From NCBI GenBank assembly GCA_964446365.1, contig CAYUOI010000001.1:1-43087 (forward strand): DNA of 43,087 nt, given 5' to 3'. Numbering within the stretch: the first letter of the stretch is position 1; every line of letters begins with the position of its first letter. The translations under genes and the position numbers were made by a program. The notes beneath the pieces are model-generated. The model did no database searches. It had not been told where the DNA came from and worked only from the letters and a program-made list of their open reading frames with translations. This document shows positions 1,941 through 43,002 of this stretch, piece by piece. The DNA comes from an uncultured Candidatus Saccharibacteria bacterium (GTDB taxonomy: Bacteria; Patescibacteriota; Saccharimonadia; Saccharimonadales; CAYVSP01).

Positions 1941-3905
1941 ATGGCTAAATTCAAGCTAAACGCGGAGTTCAAGCCGACTGGTGATCAGCCGGCGGCTATT
2001 TCCGCGTTAACCGATGGCCTTCAAAAGGCAACCAAAGAGCAGGTATTACTTGGCGTAACCGGATCGGGTAAGACTTTCACAATGGCCAATGTGGTCCAGA
2101 ATATCCAAAAGCCAACCCTAGTACTTAGCCACAACAAAACACTCGCGGCCCAACTTTATAATGAGTTTAAAAGCTTTTTCCCAGATAATGCCGTTCATTA
2201 TTTTGTAAGTTACTTTGATTATTATCAGCCGGAAGCCTACATTCCGCGTAGCGATACCTACATCGAAAAAGATTCCCAAATTAACGAAGAAATCGACCGG
2301 CTGCGTCACGCCGCCACCGACGCGCTACTTTCTAGGCGAGACGTATTAATCGTCGCCAGTGTCAGCTGCATCTACGGCATTGGTTCGGTAGAAGATTATG
2401 GTAATTTGGCCGAAGTTATTAAGGTTGGTGAGCGCAAAGTCCGCGACAAGCTGCTGAGACATTTGACAGATATTCAGTACCAGCGCAACGACATTGATTT
2501 CCACCGGAGTACCTTCCGGGTTCGCGGTGATGTGGTTGATGTTTATCCGGCTGGTGAGGAAATGGCCTACAGGATAGAGTTTTTTGGAGATGAAGTCGAA
2601 CGAATCACTAGAATAGATCCGTTAACAGGGGAAATACTAGCCAATCTGGAAACTCTGCGAGTTTTTCCAGGCAGCCACTACGTAACGCCGGAATCCAAAT
2701 TAAAGGTAGCCTTGGGCAAAATACAGCAAGAACTAGAAGAGCGGCTGGCTTTCTTTAACAAGAATGGTTTGCTTCTTGAGGCCCAGCGTTTAGCGCAGCG
2801 CACCAAGTTTGACCTGGAAATGCTTGAGGAAACCGGCTTTGTTAAGGGAATTGAAAATTATAGCCGCTATTTGACAAACCGCGAGCCTGGCGAGCAGCCA
2901 GCCACGCTGCTGGATTACTTTCCAGATGACTTTCTGATGTTTATCGACGAGTCACACATGACCATTCCGCAGGTACGCGGTATGTATAATGGCGACCGCG
3001 CTCGCAAGGAAGTGTTGGTGGAACACGGCTTTCGCTTGCCGAGCGCTCTAGACAACCGGCCGCTAACTTTTACGGAATTTGAGCGTCACGTCAATAATGT
3101 CGTTTATGTCAGCGCAACTCCTGCTGACTACGAACTGTCGCGCAGTCCTGAGCCAATTTATCAGGTTATCCGGCCAACCGGATTGCTCGATCCAGAAATA
3201 GAAGTTCGTCCGATTGAAGGCCAGATTGATGACTTAATCAGCGAGATTAGGGCGACTGTCGATAAGCGGCAGCGAGTCCTAGTAACGACGCTAACCAAAC
3301 GAATGAGCGAAGACCTGACCGAATATCTCAAGGAACTAGATATTAAGGTAACTTATTTACACAGTGATATCGAAACCCTGGAGCGAACCGATATTTTACG
3401 TGATCTGCGGCTTGGCACTTACGACGTGGTTGTTGGTATTAACCTACTTCGTGAAGGCCTGGATTTGCCCGAGGTCAGTCTGGTAGCTATCTTAGACGCT
3501 GATAAAGAAGGGTTTCTACGAAGCGAGCAGGCTTTAATTCAAACCGTCGGCCGGGCCGCCCGCCATGTTGAGGGACGGGTGGTGATGTATGCCGACCATA
3601 TTACCGGCAGCATGCAGCGCACTATTGACGAGACTAATCGCCGCCGCAAAATCCAGGAAGCCTACAACACTGAACACGGTATAACCCCTACCGGAATATC
3701 AAAGTCGATCGAAAAAGGTATGCGGCCGGATCTTCCCGAGGAAGCTAAGAAGGCCAAGCTGGATCTCAAAAAGATACCCAAAGACGAATATAAGCACCTG
3801 ATTCGTGACTTGTCGTCTCAGATGGACTTGGCGGCAGCTAACCTGGAATTTGAAAAAGCCGCCGAGCTACGCGATATTATCACCGATATTAAGAGCAAAC
3901 TCTAA
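1941..3905 (+). CDS. uvrB: excinuclease ABC subunit B
   Basis: 654 aa with Walker A GVTGSGKT and the [14 protein letters not shown] beta-hairpin region. Helicase motifs and the C-terminal UVR domain ([11 protein letters not shown]) are present. Confidence 0.97.
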
Positions 3906-36476: not shown

Positions 36477-37301
36477 ATGTATTCCGGTACCACGTTGACT
36501 AAATTTTCTGGACGAATGTTTGGTGCCCACCAGAAGGTAGACAGCGTATCACGCCGCCATTTAGCAAAGCTTATTAAGGACGAAAGCTTGTTTCCGAATA
36601 TCCGCCAGATCCTCCACTTTGAAGGTAAAAATGGTCCGGACGGTGCTAAGCGTAAAAGTCCGGCCAAAGATGAACCTTGGCACTTCTACGCGCCGTTTAA
36701 TGATGAGGACGCCGAAATTCTCGGGCTTATAAACGCGCACTACAACCAACTGGTAGAAGAACTTAGGGAAGGCGATAAAGAACGTACTGCCTTTGAGGCG
36801 GCCTGGCTGGCGCACGCTCTGGTTGATGGCCTGACCCCGGCCCACCACTACCCCTATGAAGAAAAATTAGCGGAACTACGCGGCGGCCAAAATCTTAGCA
36901 CCCGTAATAGCGTACGTAAGAAAATGGTAATGCCCGGCGACACAGCCCGAGAAAAAGTCAGCAATAATTGGAAAATGTGGGGGGCTAAAGGACTACTCAT
37001 TACTCACTGGTGGTTTGAGTTCGGTATAGCCATGATCTTTAAGCCTCTAAACTTCGGTGAAGTAAAGCCTACTAAATTAGAAGTTAAGCAATTTATGGAC
37101 ATGGGTTTGGATGAGTGGTTCAAGAGAACCGCCCGAGAAATCGCCGTGCTAGAAATGTACGATAGGTATTACAAAAAAGGCTGGACGCCAAAATTAGCCT
37201 ACGAGGTTCGACATAAACTGGGTCCGGCTCTAGTTAAAACTGTAACCCTGACATGGTATTCGGCTCTATTTGATGCCGGGCTGGTCGAATATACAGCATG
37301 A
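36477..37301 (+). CDS. hypothetical protein (possible zinc-dependent phospholipase C / P1-nuclease-like fold; weak)
   Basis: 274-aa ORF containing AWLAHALVDGLTPAHH, a His/Asp pattern. Its stop overlaps the rsmD start (ATGA at 37298). Confidence 0.6.
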   Translation: MYSGTTLTKFSGRMFGAHQKVDSVSRRHLAKLIKDESLFPNIRQILHFEGKNGPDGAKRKSPAKDEPWHFYAPFNDEDAEILGLINAHYNQLVEELREGDKERTAFEAAWLAHALVDGLTPAHHYPYEEKLAELRGGQNLSTRNSVRKKMVMPGDTAREKVSNNWKMWGAKGLLITHWWFEFGIAMIFKPLNFGEVKPTKLEVKQFMDMGLDEWFKRTAREIAVLEMYDRYYKKGWTPKLAYEVRHKLGPALVKTVTLTWYSALFDAGLVEYTA

Positions 37302-37831
37302 GGGTAATAAGCGGCTATTTGGGCGGAAGAAACTTTGATGCCCCAAAAGGTAAAGCTACTCACCCGATGAGTGATAAAATGCGCGGCGCTCTTTTTAATA
37401 TGCTGGGTGATATTTCGGATCTGACGGTGTTGGATGCGTTTGCTGGTAGCGGCGCGCTAAGTTTTGAAGCCGTAAGCCGCGGCGCAGCAGCTGCTACGGC
37501 CATTGAGAACGACAAAACAGCTCATAAGGTTATTAATGATAATGCCAAGGCGCTGGATATTGATAAGGAAGTCAAAGCTATAAAAGCTACGGTTTCCGGT
37601 TGGTCGGCAAATAACCCGGCGGCTATCTATGATTTAGTATTGGCAGACCCACCCTACGAGAATTTGCAAGAAAGCAGTATTTTAAAGTTAACTCAACACC
37701 TTAAACCAAACAGTTTAATGGTGCTATCCTGGCCCGGGCATAAAAAAGCGCCGGCGTTTAGCGGTCTTATAAAGCAAACTGAAAGAAATTACGGTGATTC
37801 GCAACTAGTCTTTTACCGAAAAAATTCGTAA
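37298..37831 (+). CDS. rsmD: 16S rRNA (guanine966-N2)-methyltransferase RsmD
   Basis: 177 aa with LDAFAGSGALSFEAVSRGA and the DPPY catalytic motif. Confidence 0.9.
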   Translation: MRVISGYLGGRNFDAPKGKATHPMSDKMRGALFNMLGDISDLTVLDAFAGSGALSFEAVSRGAAAATAIENDKTAHKVINDNAKALDIDKEVKAIKATVSGWSANNPAAIYDLVLADPPYENLQESSILKLTQHLKPNSLMVLSWPGHKKAPAFSGLIKQTERNYGDSQLVFYRKNS

Positions 37832-37843
37832 ACTACTGCTAAC

Positions 37844-37928
37844 GCGGATGTGGTGGAATTGGTAGACACGCTAGGTTTAGGACCTAGTGCCGCAAGGCGT
37901 GAAGGTTCAAGTCCTTTCATCCGCACCA
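37844..37928 (+). tRNA. tRNA-Leu (anticodon UAG), class II with a long variable arm and encoded CCA
   Basis: I folded the cloverleaf by hand. The acceptor stem is GCGGATG/CATCCGC. The anticodon stem CTAGG/CCTAG carries loop TTTAGGA. A 15-nt variable arm is present, and the T arm is GAAGG-TTCAAGT-CCTTT. The discriminator A is followed by CCA. Confidence 0.93.
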
Positions 37929-37948
37929 ATATACAACGAAACTAAAAA

Positions 37949-38059
37949 TTATTCTGCGTCTTTGCGAAGACGGGCTTCGCGGACAACAAATGAAATTAAA
38001 ATAGCTACTGTCGCGCCTATCCCGGCGGCCACCAACTGATTTATATCTGCGGGAGTCAT
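37949..38059 (-). CDS. candidate 36-aa single-TM peptide (absent from the ORF track)
   Basis: It encodes MTPADINQLVAAGIGATVAILISFVVREARLRKDAE. On the minus strand it has an extended -10, TGTTATAAT (38091-38099), and an AAGG Shine-Dalgarno (38066-38069) 6 nt before the ATG at 38059. Two overlapping hairpins lie at its 3' end (37957-37980). Confidence 0.4.
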   Translation of the reverse strand: MTPADINQLVAAGIGATVAILISFVVREARLRKDAE

Positions 38060-38138
38060 TTCTAACCTTTATTTTTTAAAACGTAACCATATTATAACAC
38101 AAGCGCATTGAGCTCTGGTAGAGACTTCTGAGGAATAG

Positions 38139-38166
38139 TTGACAATAGTACTAGTTATGCTAAAGT
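38139..38166 (+). promoter_or_regulatory. strong sigma-70-type promoter of the his leader
   Basis: TTGACA (38139-38144), a 16-nt spacer, then TAAAGT (38161-38166), preceded by TGc (an extended -10). Confidence 0.65.
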
Positions 38167-38173
38167 AATCTTT

Positions 38174-38230
38174 ATGGTTTATTTAACTAACCAGCATCAT
38201 CTGCATATATTGCCGGAGCATGTCGGTTAG
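38174..38230 (+). CDS. candidate leaderless His-codon leader peptide (18 codons)
   Basis: It encodes MVYLTNQHHLHILPEHVG. The ATG lies 7 nt after the -10 hexamer. CAT codons occur at 38195, 38198, 38204 and 38219. Confidence 0.45.
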   Translation: MVYLTNQHHLHILPEHVG

Positions 38231-38256
38231 TTAAGTATTGTCTTTTTAAAACATTA

Positions 38257-38284
38257 CGCCGGACATCGCTCCGGCGATTTTTTT
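38257..38284 (+). terminator. intrinsic terminator in the hisG-hisS leader
   Basis: CGCCGGA (38257-38263) pairs perfectly with TCCGGCG (38270-38276), giving a 7-bp stem with a 6-nt loop. One A and then T7 (38278-38284) follow. Confidence 0.8.
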
Positions 38285-38312
38285 AGTATTTTTTGTAATT
38301 AAGGAGAAAGAA

Positions 38313-38916
38313 ATGAATCCAGAAATTTTTAAAAAAGCAGAACGAGTCTTAATTCCTAAGGGACGTGACTTGAAAATAGTACTAGAGTGGATAGCCCTAC
38401 AGGGTTTTGAGCCGCCAATGGCACCTACGGAAGATCGGAGGTCACTTCACCCAGCTTGTTGATAAAAAGCTGTATGCGTTTGTGAAATCTGCAGATATAC
38501 GGGAAATGTTGTTCCGACACTACGCTGAAATTGGATTTATTGGCTCAGACAAATTAAGAGAAGCTAAGCTCAGCGGAAAAGGTGATACCTATGAGAATGA
38601 ACCAATCGCCGATGCCGCCTGTACTATGGTTGAAGCTTCCAGGTGCAAAGATGGCCTTACGCCGTATTCTAGAGTAGCAAGTAGCTATCCGTTTACGGCG
38701 CGTGAATACATGTGGAATCTGCCGGGCCCGCCGCTGCGACCAATACCAAATATAGTATTCGAACCGAGCGGATCTGTAGAAGCATTTGTGGAGCTTGGAA
38801 TAGCCGATGGCATAATCGATGTACGGGAAACTGGGCAAACACTCGAAGATAACGGAATTACGTACTATAAAGAAATAATGCCTATAACCACCAACATAGT
38901 TTGGCGAAATGGTTAA
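38313..38916 (+). pseudogene. hisG: short-form ATP phosphoribosyltransferase (HisG-S) interrupted by a +1 frame change
   Basis: A 49-codon ORF (38313-38462) follows an AAGGAG Shine-Dalgarno at 38301-38306 and encodes the HisG N-terminus (RVLIPKGRDLKIVLEWI). The rest is in the +1 frame (open from 38395, listed ORF 38407-38916). That part carries EIGFIGSDKL, RVASSYPFTAREY and the HisG signature EAFVELGIADGIIDVRETGQTL. Confidence 0.75.
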
Positions 38917-38936
38917 TGTTAGAATGGAGAAAAGCA

Positions 38937-40244
38937 ATGGCACTATCAACACAACCATATAAAGGCGCTCGTGATTTCTATCCGGAAGACGAGCGGCTAC
39001 AAAAGTACATCTTTGCCAAGTGGCGCGAAGTCTGCGAGCGCTATGGCTATGAAGAGTACGACGCGCCTATTTTGGAACCGACAGAACTATATTTAAGCAA
39101 AGGTAATGAAGAGATCATTAAAGAGCAAACGTATAGCTTCGAAGATCGCGGTGGGCGGCAGGTAACGCTGCGTACGGAGATGACGCCAACGGTAAGCCGG
39201 ATGGTGGCCGGTCGGCGTCAGGAGCTGGGCTATCCGTTGCGATTGTATTCAATACCGCAGTGCTGGCGCTACGAACGCCCACAGCGTGGGCGAGGTCGCG
39301 AATTCTACCAGCTAAACGTCGATCTATTTGGCGTTGAAGGTATTCAGGCCGAGTACGAAATAATCTCTAACGCCGACGCCGTCATGGTCGCTTTTGGCGC
39401 CAAGCGCAACATGTACGCCATTAAGCTCAATAGCCGCAAACTTGTCGACTACGTAATGCGGACATGGCTAGGACTCGATGAAGCGCAAACCGCGCCAGTC
39501 ATACGGTTAATAGATCGCATCGATAAAATTGAGCGCACTGAGTTTTCGAGCAAGCTTGATGCAATATTAACACCTGCGCAACGGACGAATAAGACTGAAG
39601 AGCGTTTGATGGCATTTCTAGACGTGCAAAAGCTTGAAGATTTGCCCGCCGACTTGCAAAAGTTTGATTCGGCGACTGAACTGCGCGAACTGATGCAGGC
39701 ACTTACAGAAGATGGCGTCAACAACATCGTTTTTGAGGCCTCACTAATGCGCGGTTTTGATTACTATACCGATATAGTTTTTGAGGTCTTTGATACGAGT
39801 CCAGAAAATAATCGTTCTATGTTTGGCGGAGGTCGCTACGATGGTTTGGTAGAAGCATTCGGTGCCGAGGCAGTCCCAACCGTGGGCTACGGAATGGGCG
39901 ATATACCGCTGACGAATTTTCTAGAGACACACCAGCTTAGTCCAGACTTGCGTCCAGAGACTGATCTATACGTAATTGCGATCGGTAATTTTTATAGGCC
40001 GGTCCAAAAAATTGCTAATGAACTTCGCGAAATGGGTGTCAATGTTGCCGTCGACACCACTGGCCGGAAGACGGATAAGCAAATTAAGACGGCGGTCAAA
40101 AAAGACATTCGCTACGCACTGTTCGTCGGCGAAGAAGAGCTAACCAGTAAACAGTATCGTCTCAAGGATTTGAAGACAGGCGCAGAAGAAACAATTGATT
40201 TAGAAGGTATCGCGGCTACGCTAAAAGACTTTCGACGTTCATAA
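38937..40244 (+). CDS. hisS: histidine--tRNA ligase
   Basis: 435 aa from ATG 38937, with GGAGAA 7 nt upstream. It has YKGARDFYPED, motif 2 RYERPQRGRGREFYQLNVDLFG, motif 3 GGGRYDGL, and a C-terminal anticodon-binding domain. Confidence 0.93.
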   Translation: MALSTQPYKGARDFYPEDERLQKYIFAKWREVCERYGYEEYDAPILEPTELYLSKGNEEIIKEQTYSFEDRGGRQVTLRTEMTPTVSRMVAGRRQELGYPLRLYSIPQCWRYERPQRGRGREFYQLNVDLFGVEGIQAEYEIISNADAVMVAFGAKRNMYAIKLNSRKLVDYVMRTWLGLDEAQTAPVIRLIDRIDKIERTEFSSKLDAILTPAQRTNKTEERLMAFLDVQKLEDLPADLQKFDSATELRELMQALTEDGVNNIVFEASLMRGFDYYTDIVFEVFDTSPENNRSMFGGGRYDGLVEAFGAEAVPTVGYGMGDIPLTNFLETHQLSPDLRPETDLYVIAIGNFYRPVQKIANELREMGVNVAVDTTGRKTDKQIKTAVKKDIRYALFVGEEELTSKQYRLKDLKTGAEETIDLEGIAATLKDFRRS

Positions 40245-40302
40245 CAGAAATTGTGCTGGTGGTTCTAGCGCAACTTCTTTAGATCTGTTAAAATAATCTT
40301 TC

Positions 40303-42321: not shown

Positions 42322-43002
42322 GTGACTAATAGCGCTATTTATGAACCTAAGTCGGGCGGAGTTTTTGCAGTAGAGAGGCTGTCGCCAGGTTTGGTTGATC
42401 GAAATCCTAAATATGTAACAGCTATTCGCAGAATTTTAGAAGCAAGCTGGACGGCTAAGTTTGTGCCGGAACATATGACGGCGGTAGACCTTGGCGCAAA
42501 GTTAGTATCAAATTCTGTACAGCGAGAACGCATAGTTACGCCAACTCGTGATGCTGCTTATTGGCTGGCTTACCGACCAATCAAAGCTGAAGACGGTGAG
42601 TATGACTTAGGATTACGTCATGTTAATGATGCGTGCGCGTTCGTGCGAGTTGAGACCTATAAACCTCGCAATCCATTCAAAAAAGCTTATTCAAATATTA
42701 CGGATGTAGAAACGCTAGACGGCAAAATACGCGGTACATACGAAAAGCAGGTTGCAGCTCTTTTGCACTTCGCGCTAGCAGATTTCGAAGATGATCGAAA
42801 AGCCTCGTTTTATGGTGAAGAACCGAACGATGAAGCAGTTAGAGCCATGGGCAGACTGGGTTATGACTTAACTGACGACAGGCCGACCGAAAAAATCGGT
42901 GCAGCTACAATGACATACGTACATATGGAAGCGAACGCAGTAGAGAGAGTTAAAGGGAATCTTATGCTTGCTTATCCGTTCTTAGGGCAGCCGGCAGCTT
43001 GA
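42322..43002 (+). CDS. hypothetical protein (orphan) in the position usually held by clpX
   Basis: 226-aa ORF with a GTG start and a TATACT -10 (42308-42313) 8 nt upstream. I recognise no motif. Confidence 0.55.
   Translation: MTNSAIYEPKSGGVFAVERLSPGLVDRNPKYVTAIRRILEASWTAKFVPEHMTAVDLGAKLVSNSVQRERIVTPTRDAAYWLAYRPIKAEDGEYDLGLRHVNDACAFVRVETYKPRNPFKKAYSNITDVETLDGKIRGTYEKQVAALLHFALADFEDDRKASFYGEEPNDEAVRAMGRLGYDLTDDRPTEKIGAATMTYVHMEANAVERVKGNLMLAYPFLGQPAA

Follow-up and report, generated by a model that had tools for sequence, protein, structure and literature searches.

A conserved candidate +1 frameshift site with a histidine codon in the A site of a split Saccharibacteria hisG

Introduction

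Few conserved frameshift sites are found on bacterial chromosomes, the main examples being those of prfB, dnaX and copA. The prfB site reads AGGGGG-UAU-CUU-UGA-C, with the same 3-nt spacing as the site described below, and the release factor 2 (RF2) cassette with sense codons in its A site was reportedly used by Curran and Yarus in 1989 as a read-out of the rate of aminoacyl-tRNA selection. The +1 layout of prfB consists of an internal Shine-Dalgarno (SD) sequence, a 3-nt spacer, CUU and a slowly decoded A-site codon, and the Ty1 +1 site, CUU_AGG_C, has a slow sense codon (PMC5009743). With respect to transcription, histidine leader peptides have been predicted 5' of hisZ and of a hisS paralogue in bacilli (PMC2965389). 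Here we describe a split hisG gene directly upstream of hisS in a 43,087-nt stretch of DNA (contig CAYUOI010000001.1, positions 1 to 43,087 of the forward strand; hereafter the window), which was assigned to Saccharibacteria through its HisS relatives in GTDB genomes. We propose, with a probability of roughly 0.6, that this hisG is a live gene expressed by programmed +1 frameshifting, the efficiency of which probably rises when histidyl-tRNA (His-tRNA(His)) is scarce. To our knowledge no bacterial frameshift site is gated by a sense codon for the amino acid of its own pathway, and none was found in the literature searched, in which neither a frameshifted hisG nor any recoding in Saccharibacteria was described.

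A hisG gene in two reading frames

An earlier note on this DNA had described a short-form hisG divided between two frames, and both open reading frames (ORFs), the IPKGR motif and the overlap were located as it had claimed. The frame-0 ORF (38313-38462, 49 aa) encodes MNPEIFKKAERVLIPKGRD... and contains IPKGR. Frame 0 closes at 38462 and the +1 frame opens at 38395, so that the two overlap at 38395-38462. If no shift took place, translation would end at the stop codon at 38460-38462 and release a 49-aa fragment. The elements of the gene are as follows.

38313..38447 (+), hisG part 1: 45 frame-0 codons, preceded by the SD sequence AAGGAG at 38301-38306
38436..38450 (+), candidate frameshift cassette: CGGAGG (SD-like), TCA (E site), CTT at 38445-38447 (P site) and CAC at 38448-38450 (His, A site)
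38449..38916 (+), hisG part 2: +1 frame from ACC, 155 codons plus TAA, Pfam HisG at 8e-21

Profile searches upheld the assignment to HisG. The +1 ORF matched PF01634 with 75.1 bits (E-value 8e-21) against a cut-off of 25.5, and the joined protein scored 74.3 bits. The equivalog cut-off of TIGR00070 (75.75) was narrowly missed by the joined protein at 73.1 bits and by the +1 ORF at 65.4 bits, a near miss which points to a divergent subfamily. The C-terminal HisG_C domain (PF08029) was not matched. On alignment with the HisG proteins of B. subtilis and L. lactis, residues 12-196 of the 200-aa joined protein were aligned, across the junction. Direct reading showed that EAFVELGIADGIIDVRETGQTL fits E-x5-G-x-[SAG]-x2-[IV]-x-D-[LIV]-x2-[ST]-G-x-T-[LM], which we take to be the phosphoribosyl pyrophosphate (PRPP) loop signature. 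Among 34 relatives E156, D169 and G174 show little or no variation, and the motifs GSD, ATSYP, GSVE and D-x3-TG-x-TL are kept throughout the HisG family. The predicted product is a short-form ATP phosphoribosyltransferase, which would convert ATP and PRPP to phosphoribosyl-ATP (PR-ATP), an activity that in this enzyme type depends on a HisZ partner.

A conserved cassette at the frame change

The identical split and cassette layout was found in all 11 split loci, that of the window included, as verified at the DNA level in highly diverged assemblies. The hexamer was purine-rich in every case (CGGAGG and GGGAGG four times each, CGAAGG, AAGGAG and GGAAGA once each) and was followed by a 3-nt spacer (TGT in nine loci, TCA and TGC in one each). 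The P-site codon was CTT in all 11 and the A-site codon a histidine codon, CAC in ten and CAT in one. Each locus has at least 40 open frame-0 codons before the cassette and at least 151 open +1 codons after it. Frame 0 closes between 1 and 6 codons past the His codon (four codons in the window), directly after it in only 2 of the 11 loci, and since this position varies the stop is not the conserved element. The bases following CAY vary as well (CCA, CTC, CGG, TGA, ATA, CGC, CAA, CCG).

The residues which the hexamer specifies in frame 0 differ among loci (RR, GR, KE) while its purine-rich character is retained, which suggests selection on the nucleotides. Over the 12,077 codons of the window, CTT-CAC occurs in frame once and CGG-AGG nowhere else, AGG being the rarest Arg codon. 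The cassette was found nowhere else in the 1.49 Mb of sequence examined. It is likewise missing from the unsplit homologues (L091, L064 and L057), which have no conserved residue at the position where split forms always carry T or I after the shift.

The earlier note had placed the frame change at a CCC run. This run is present at 38450-38452, loss of one C from it does restore the reading frame, and a shift there is compatible with the length of the protein. Conservation, however, is confined to CTT-CAY and the hexamer ahead of it, a signal which places the shift at CTT 38445-38447, one codon earlier.

Judged by analogy, the hisG site appears to work like that of prfB while standing outside that family. 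Both have a short first ORF with the main body of the gene in the +1 frame, CUU as the shift codon and an SD-like stimulator exactly 3 nt upstream; in both, tRNA(Leu) re-pairs one base forward (in hisG, as proposed here), and in both the site is missing from homologues that are not frameshifted. The A site differs, being His CAC or CAT in 11 of 11 hisG sites and UGA in prfB. The hisG site would sense His-tRNA(His), whereas prfB senses its own product, and re-pairing would occur on UUC, not UUU. The family (HisG) and the lineage (Saccharibacteria) differ too. When prfB with a classical cassette was sought in the same loci, no prfB was present in them.

With the Ty1 and ABP140 sites of yeast the hisG site shares a P-site CUU followed by a sense codon, slow decoding as the driver of the shift (again as proposed for hisG) and, in 8 of the 11 sites, a C as the seventh base. 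In contrast to hisG the yeast sites are eukaryotic, lack an SD stimulator and slip to UUA, and slowness there comes from a rare tRNA, where in hisG it would come from the level of charging.

Selection on the two parts and predicted fold of the joined protein

The proportions of synonymous (pS) and nonsynonymous (pN) differences were compared between the window and the homologous locus L001 of a relative, in which HisG is 75% and HisS 57% identical to that of the window.

hisG part 1 against L001: pS 0.69, pN 0.21
hisG part 2 against L001: pS 0.80, pN 0.145
hisS against L001: pS 0.82, pN 0.30

Read in its own frame, each half of hisG shows purifying selection, stronger than that on hisS. Reading either part in the wrong frame abolished the pattern, and synonymous sites were saturated.

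AlphaFold modelled the joined protein with a mean predicted local distance difference test (pLDDT) of 91.8 and a predicted template-modelling score (pTM) of 0.85 when a 34-sequence alignment was supplied, and with a pLDDT of 31.6 from the single sequence. The N-terminal 45 residues were modelled as beta1-alpha1 within domain I (pLDDT 84-97), and the junction falls at the beginning of a modelled beta-strand (residues 46-49). The top Foldseek matches were short-form HisG from L. lactis and from P. arcticus, together with the HisG catalytic core of C. jejuni, with template-modelling (TM) scores of 0.72-0.80 over approximately 195-206 columns. On these models the joined product is predicted to be a complete two-domain HisG fold without a C-terminal HisG_C domain.

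The short-form HisG of the HisZG enzymes (L. lactis 1z7m, P. arcticus 5m8h/6fca) resembles the window protein in fold (TM 0.72-0.76), length, motifs and the lack of a C-terminal regulatory domain. It differs in that no HisZ was seen in the window, where the neighbour is a genuine histidyl-tRNA synthetase (HisRS) and no pathway genes lie nearby, in that the window HisG falls just under the TIGR00070 cut-off, and in that many relatives of the latter are fused to HisE (phosphoribosyl-ATP pyrophosphohydrolase, PRA-PH).

Distribution of the split among relatives

Ten loci beyond the window share the split. A HisS scan of GTDB genomes yielded 80 Saccharibacteria loci, two of which (L080 and L032) have very distant HisG-like genes, about 24% identical, 5' of hisS and split at the same place. 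A metagenome scan gave two loci, and a word-index search with the joined protein gave one relative. A relative sampled in two independent sequencing runs (L001 and L002) has the order hisG-hisS-tig-clpP and the same two-frame hisG. A GTDB scan with a two-sequence HisG alignment found no relatives, its patterns being too specific. The split was seen in assemblies made from separate samples by more than one pipeline (Logan, ENA, JGI, NCBI).

When 1.84 billion representative proteins were searched exhaustively with a profile, 273 matches were obtained, and many of the top matches were N-terminally truncated ORFs starting with GGVFT, GGHFT, GGDFT, GGVFI, GGRFI or GGGFI. Such a start is what a +1 reading of GGNGG-NGT-CTT-CAY yields, 'F-T' corresponding to CAC and 'F-I' to CAT, both of them His codons. 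At least 18 clusters (50% identity) were N-terminally truncated and began with this +1-frame read-out of the cassette. P0011, the sole 'F-I' protein with readable DNA, has CAT, as predicted.

Fusions of HisG to HisE are common in the relatives (L080 448-1245, L083 1817-2605, L085 3001-3774, L089 3001-3828, L057 1727-2695). The window HisG has no C-terminal HisE extension. In L057 an unsplit HisG-HisE gene is followed by hisD and then by hisS.

A predicted leader-peptide attenuator upstream

Upstream of hisG the following elements were found.

38139..38166 (+), candidate promoter: TTGACA, 16 nt, (TG)TAAAGT, with 10/12 matches in a consensus scan
38174..38230 (+), leader ORF: MVYLTNQHHLHILPEHVG followed by a stop codon, with His codons at 38195-38200, 38204-38206 and 38219-38221
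38180..38237 (+), leader hairpin (regions 1:2) around the His codons, from the minimum free energy (MFE) fold
38216..38269 (+), proposed antiterminator: region 2 (38216-38230, the last leader codons and stop) paired with region 3 (38255-38269)
38257..38284 (+), predicted intrinsic terminator: CGCCGGA-CATCGC-TCCGGCG, then A and T7

Together these have the predicted anatomy of a leader-peptide transcription attenuator. TATAAT-like boxes occur at the same place as the candidate promoter in relatives. A homologous leader ORF (...N-Q-H-H-x-H-x-x-P-E-x-x-G-stop, with 1-4 His) was present in 22 loci, counting the window and L002, the duplicate of L001, and was also recognised by eye in L087, L090 and L057. 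With a His count of 1-4, some members are weak. One of its His codons is invariant in an alignment of 19 sequences, and the leader is much more conserved than coding DNA. It lies ahead of hisG in each of the 10 split loci whose 5' region could be read, even those in which hisS does not follow (L087, L088, L090), and it also lies 5' of the unsplit hisGE-hisD-hisS operon of L057.

The MFE fold of 38170-38290 had an energy of -37.2 kcal/mol (z = -6.06). The core of the leader hairpin, CUAACC:GGUUAG, was paired in approximately 84-95% of leaders (19 in all), the share varying from one base pair to the next, and the outer stem was not conserved. In the terminator, region 3 of the antiterminator supplies the 5' arm together with the loop. 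Duplexes between regions 2 and 3 averaged -9.8 kcal/mol for cognate pairs and -7.8 kcal/mol for non-cognate pairs drawn from other genomes, with none of 10,000 permutations as good. For the terminator, RNAalifold gave 8 consensus pairs, 3 of them with compensatory changes, and 95% of cells were paired. A search of 37800-39000 against Rfam (E <= 1) found no T-box, His_leader (RF00514) or other family, a tRNA being the only match.

The leader shares with hisL of enterobacteria (RF00514) and with the leaders of bacilli a short ORF, clustered His codons, alternative antiterminator and terminator structures and a position 5' of genes of the his/hisS families. It differs in having 1-4 His codons and not a run of 7, a conserved P-E-x-x-G-stop tail and no Rfam match, and it sits before a real hisS with variable genes between.

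The same leader (M...NQHHxHxxPExxG-stop plus terminator) lies ahead of hisS in roughly a quarter of the 80 sampled Saccharibacteria genomes. It was seen 5' of hisS also in L009, L017, L020, L021, L027, L028, L034, L042, L047, L050, L064, L065, L077, L081 and L082, and immediately before hisS in L081, L082, L017 and L020. From genome to genome the genes in the slot between leader and hisS vary, and they encoded a SLOG cluster4 (LOG-like) protein, HisI (phosphoribosyl-AMP cyclohydrolase, PRA-CH), or a 272-286 aa protein together with an S66 LD-carboxypeptidase (MccF-like); this variety was seen at L009 3468-3998, L034, L065 and L077, at L042 3612-3998, and at L021, L027 and L047. Several of these families act on adenine-nucleotide derivatives and may share a theme. 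The window itself encodes a SLOG cluster4 protein at 1275-1910 (Pfam 3.2e-29), 36 kb from the leader-hisS slot. In L091 a His-rich SAHHDHLPPARAE-stop followed by a terminator was found at 150-250, 5' of the unsplit hisG homologue. This motif is the C-terminal end of an ORF which runs off the start of the contig (66 residues visible) and not a short leader.

Proposed mechanism and alternative explanations

The cassette very probably directs programmed +1 ribosomal frameshifting, and we consider the chances about even that it senses His-tRNA as well. Translation would start at 38313 and proceed through 45 codons, bringing peptidyl-tRNA(Leu) onto CUU (38445-38447), with the internal SD-like GGAGG 3 nt upstream paired to 16S rRNA and the His codon CAC in the A site. 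If His-tRNA(His) arrived promptly the frame would be kept, and the ribosome would stop four codons on and release the 49-aa fragment. If it were slow to arrive, tRNA(Leu) would re-pair one base forward on UUC with ACC as the next codon, and the 200-aa short-form ATP phosphoribosyltransferase (...DRRSL-TQLVDKK...) would be made. The attenuator would add a second histidine-sensing layer, such that low charging of tRNA(His) would both let more transcription into hisG-hisS and lead to more completed HisG.

Several considerations weigh against this proposal. We infer the shift event from comparative sequence, and the codon at which it takes place and its link to His-tRNA(His) are inferences too. 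The 11 loci are phylogenetically related, hence do not represent 11 independent origins. CAC is cognate to tRNA(His)(GUG) and presumably decoded fast, and the genome commonly uses either His codon. The basal shift rate may be very low; alternatively, a constitutive shift may be driven by just the SD and CUU. Since the protein includes the T or I that follows the shift, conservation of CAY could in part reflect constraint at that level. A regulated HisG is also puzzling in an apparent auxotroph with no other his gene in the window, Saccharibacteria being generally regarded as amino-acid auxotrophs.

The rival that survives best, although we think it unlikely, is that the +1 site is real but works at a fixed efficiency, setting the ratio of fragment to full-length protein or 'correcting' an ancient indel, while the His codon senses nothing. 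In prfB no known stimulators are stronger than the SD and CUU (PMC5009743). In addition, a common, Watson-Crick-cognate codon, CAC, stands at 10 of the 11 sites, and the T/I residue could account for the conservation of CAY. That residue position is, however, unconstrained in the unsplit homologues. Efficient constitutive +1 sites normally have a stop or rare codon in the A site, but here a stop follows directly in only two loci while His is invariant, in a gene of the histidine pathway which lies behind a His-codon attenuator.

It is improbable that each ORF is translated on its own, through internal initiation or through termination and reinitiation, and that two polypeptides assemble as HisG. 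In most loci gene callers do find starts for the +1 ORF ahead of the junction, and there is an SD-like sequence within the overlap. These starts are not conserved, however, have no SD before them and are missing in L032; no ATG, GTG or TTG lies in the +1 frame at initiation distance past the internal SD, and in five loci no start is met in the 25 codons that follow. The break at residue 45 would also fall just before strand 46-49 of the modelled domain. With no conserved start codons, independent initiation or reinitiation of the +1 ORF was rejected.

Programmed frameshifting was not among the three explanations of the earlier note, two of which, a decaying relic of a hisZG unit and an indel introduced by sequencing or assembly, are contradicted by the present data. 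The lack of other his genes in the window, the supposed auxotrophy of Saccharibacteria and the TIGR00070 score slightly under the cut-off would suit a pseudogene remnant of hisZG or of a his operon, yet neither half is disrupted and each is under purifying selection although synonymous change is saturated, with lower pN and higher identity than hisS, and the single frame break comes with the same cassette every time, across 11 loci and no fewer than 18 protein clusters; we regard decay as very improbable. Least credible of all is an indel in an ordinary gene, for although the shift adjoins the short CCC run, the same frame change at the same cassette recurs in 11 assemblies from different samples and pipelines, including the separate runs of L001 and L002. 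Neither a pseudogene nor an assembly error could give rise to the selection pattern with saturated synonymous sites. Transcriptional slippage was ruled out, as no homopolymer longer than 3 is present at the site.

As to function, it is conceivable, though doubtful, that a hungry-codon sensor and the attenuator control an orphan HisG or HisG-HisE of an epibiotic auxotroph for a purpose other than histidine synthesis, with HisRS as a HisZ-like partner, or with PR-ATP or PR-AMP serving as a starvation signal or in nucleotide-related chemistry. Beside this may be set the HisI, SLOG/LOG-like and MccF-like S66 genes found in the same slot of other genomes.

Were programmed, His-tRNA-dependent frameshifting of hisG to prove true, the site would be a compact and portable translational sensor of the charging state of one tRNA and a natural counterpart of the laboratory RF2-cassette assays, with two histidine sensors stacked in one operon. 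Across many genomes and metagenomes of the candidate phyla radiation, to which Saccharibacteria belong, gene callers report the split hisG either as two fragments or as one truncated HisG, so that metabolic reconstructions may miscount HisG. What role a lone HisG plays in Saccharibacteria is a further question posed by the split gene.

hisS and the gene neighbourhood

Two further genes adjoin the elements described above.

37844..37928 (+), tRNA-Leu (anticodon TAG): ARAGORN, Rfam tRNA 59.8 bits, directly 5' of the operon
38937..40244 (+), hisS, a genuine histidine-tRNA ligase: TIGR00442, with tRNA-synt_His and HGTP_anticodon domains

The hisS gene starts 20 nt past the hisG stop and has its own SD. 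That it encodes a full HisRS and not a HisZ, as the first reading of the sequence had it, was borne out: it scored 347.9 bits on TIGR00442 (cut-off 286.75), contains the anticodon-binding domain (HGTP_anticodon, 9.6e-15) and fell below every HisZ model by a wide margin (TIGR00443, 171.7 against 271.65). Pfam scans of the 30 other large ORFs of the window turned up housekeeping genes but no further his gene, HisZ included, in agreement with the same reading. Past hisS the gene order is tig, then clpP, and a weak terminator-like hairpin lies at 40251-40273, just past hisS and ahead of tig.

Among the split loci with a visible downstream gene, hisS lies 3' of hisG in 7 of 10. In L087 and L090 the split hisG is followed by a gene on the opposite strand, and in the metagenomic contig L088 (3001-4988) cysS (Cys-tRNA ligase) takes the place of hisS behind the leader and split hisG. 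The suggestion of the earlier note that HisRS doubles as a HisZ-like partner of HisG is neither backed nor contradicted by the present data.

A tRNA-like sequence was found at the place equivalent to tRNA-Leu in L080 (about 60-145) and L032 (about 3115-3200). tRNA-Leu(TAG) adjoins the leader in distant genomes, and the shift codon CUU is a Leu codon; this adjacency may or may not matter. Two ORFs of the window, 36477-37301 (274 aa) and 42322-43002 (226 aa), had no Pfam match, and the 274-aa ORF is syntenic between recG and rsmD in L085 and L089.

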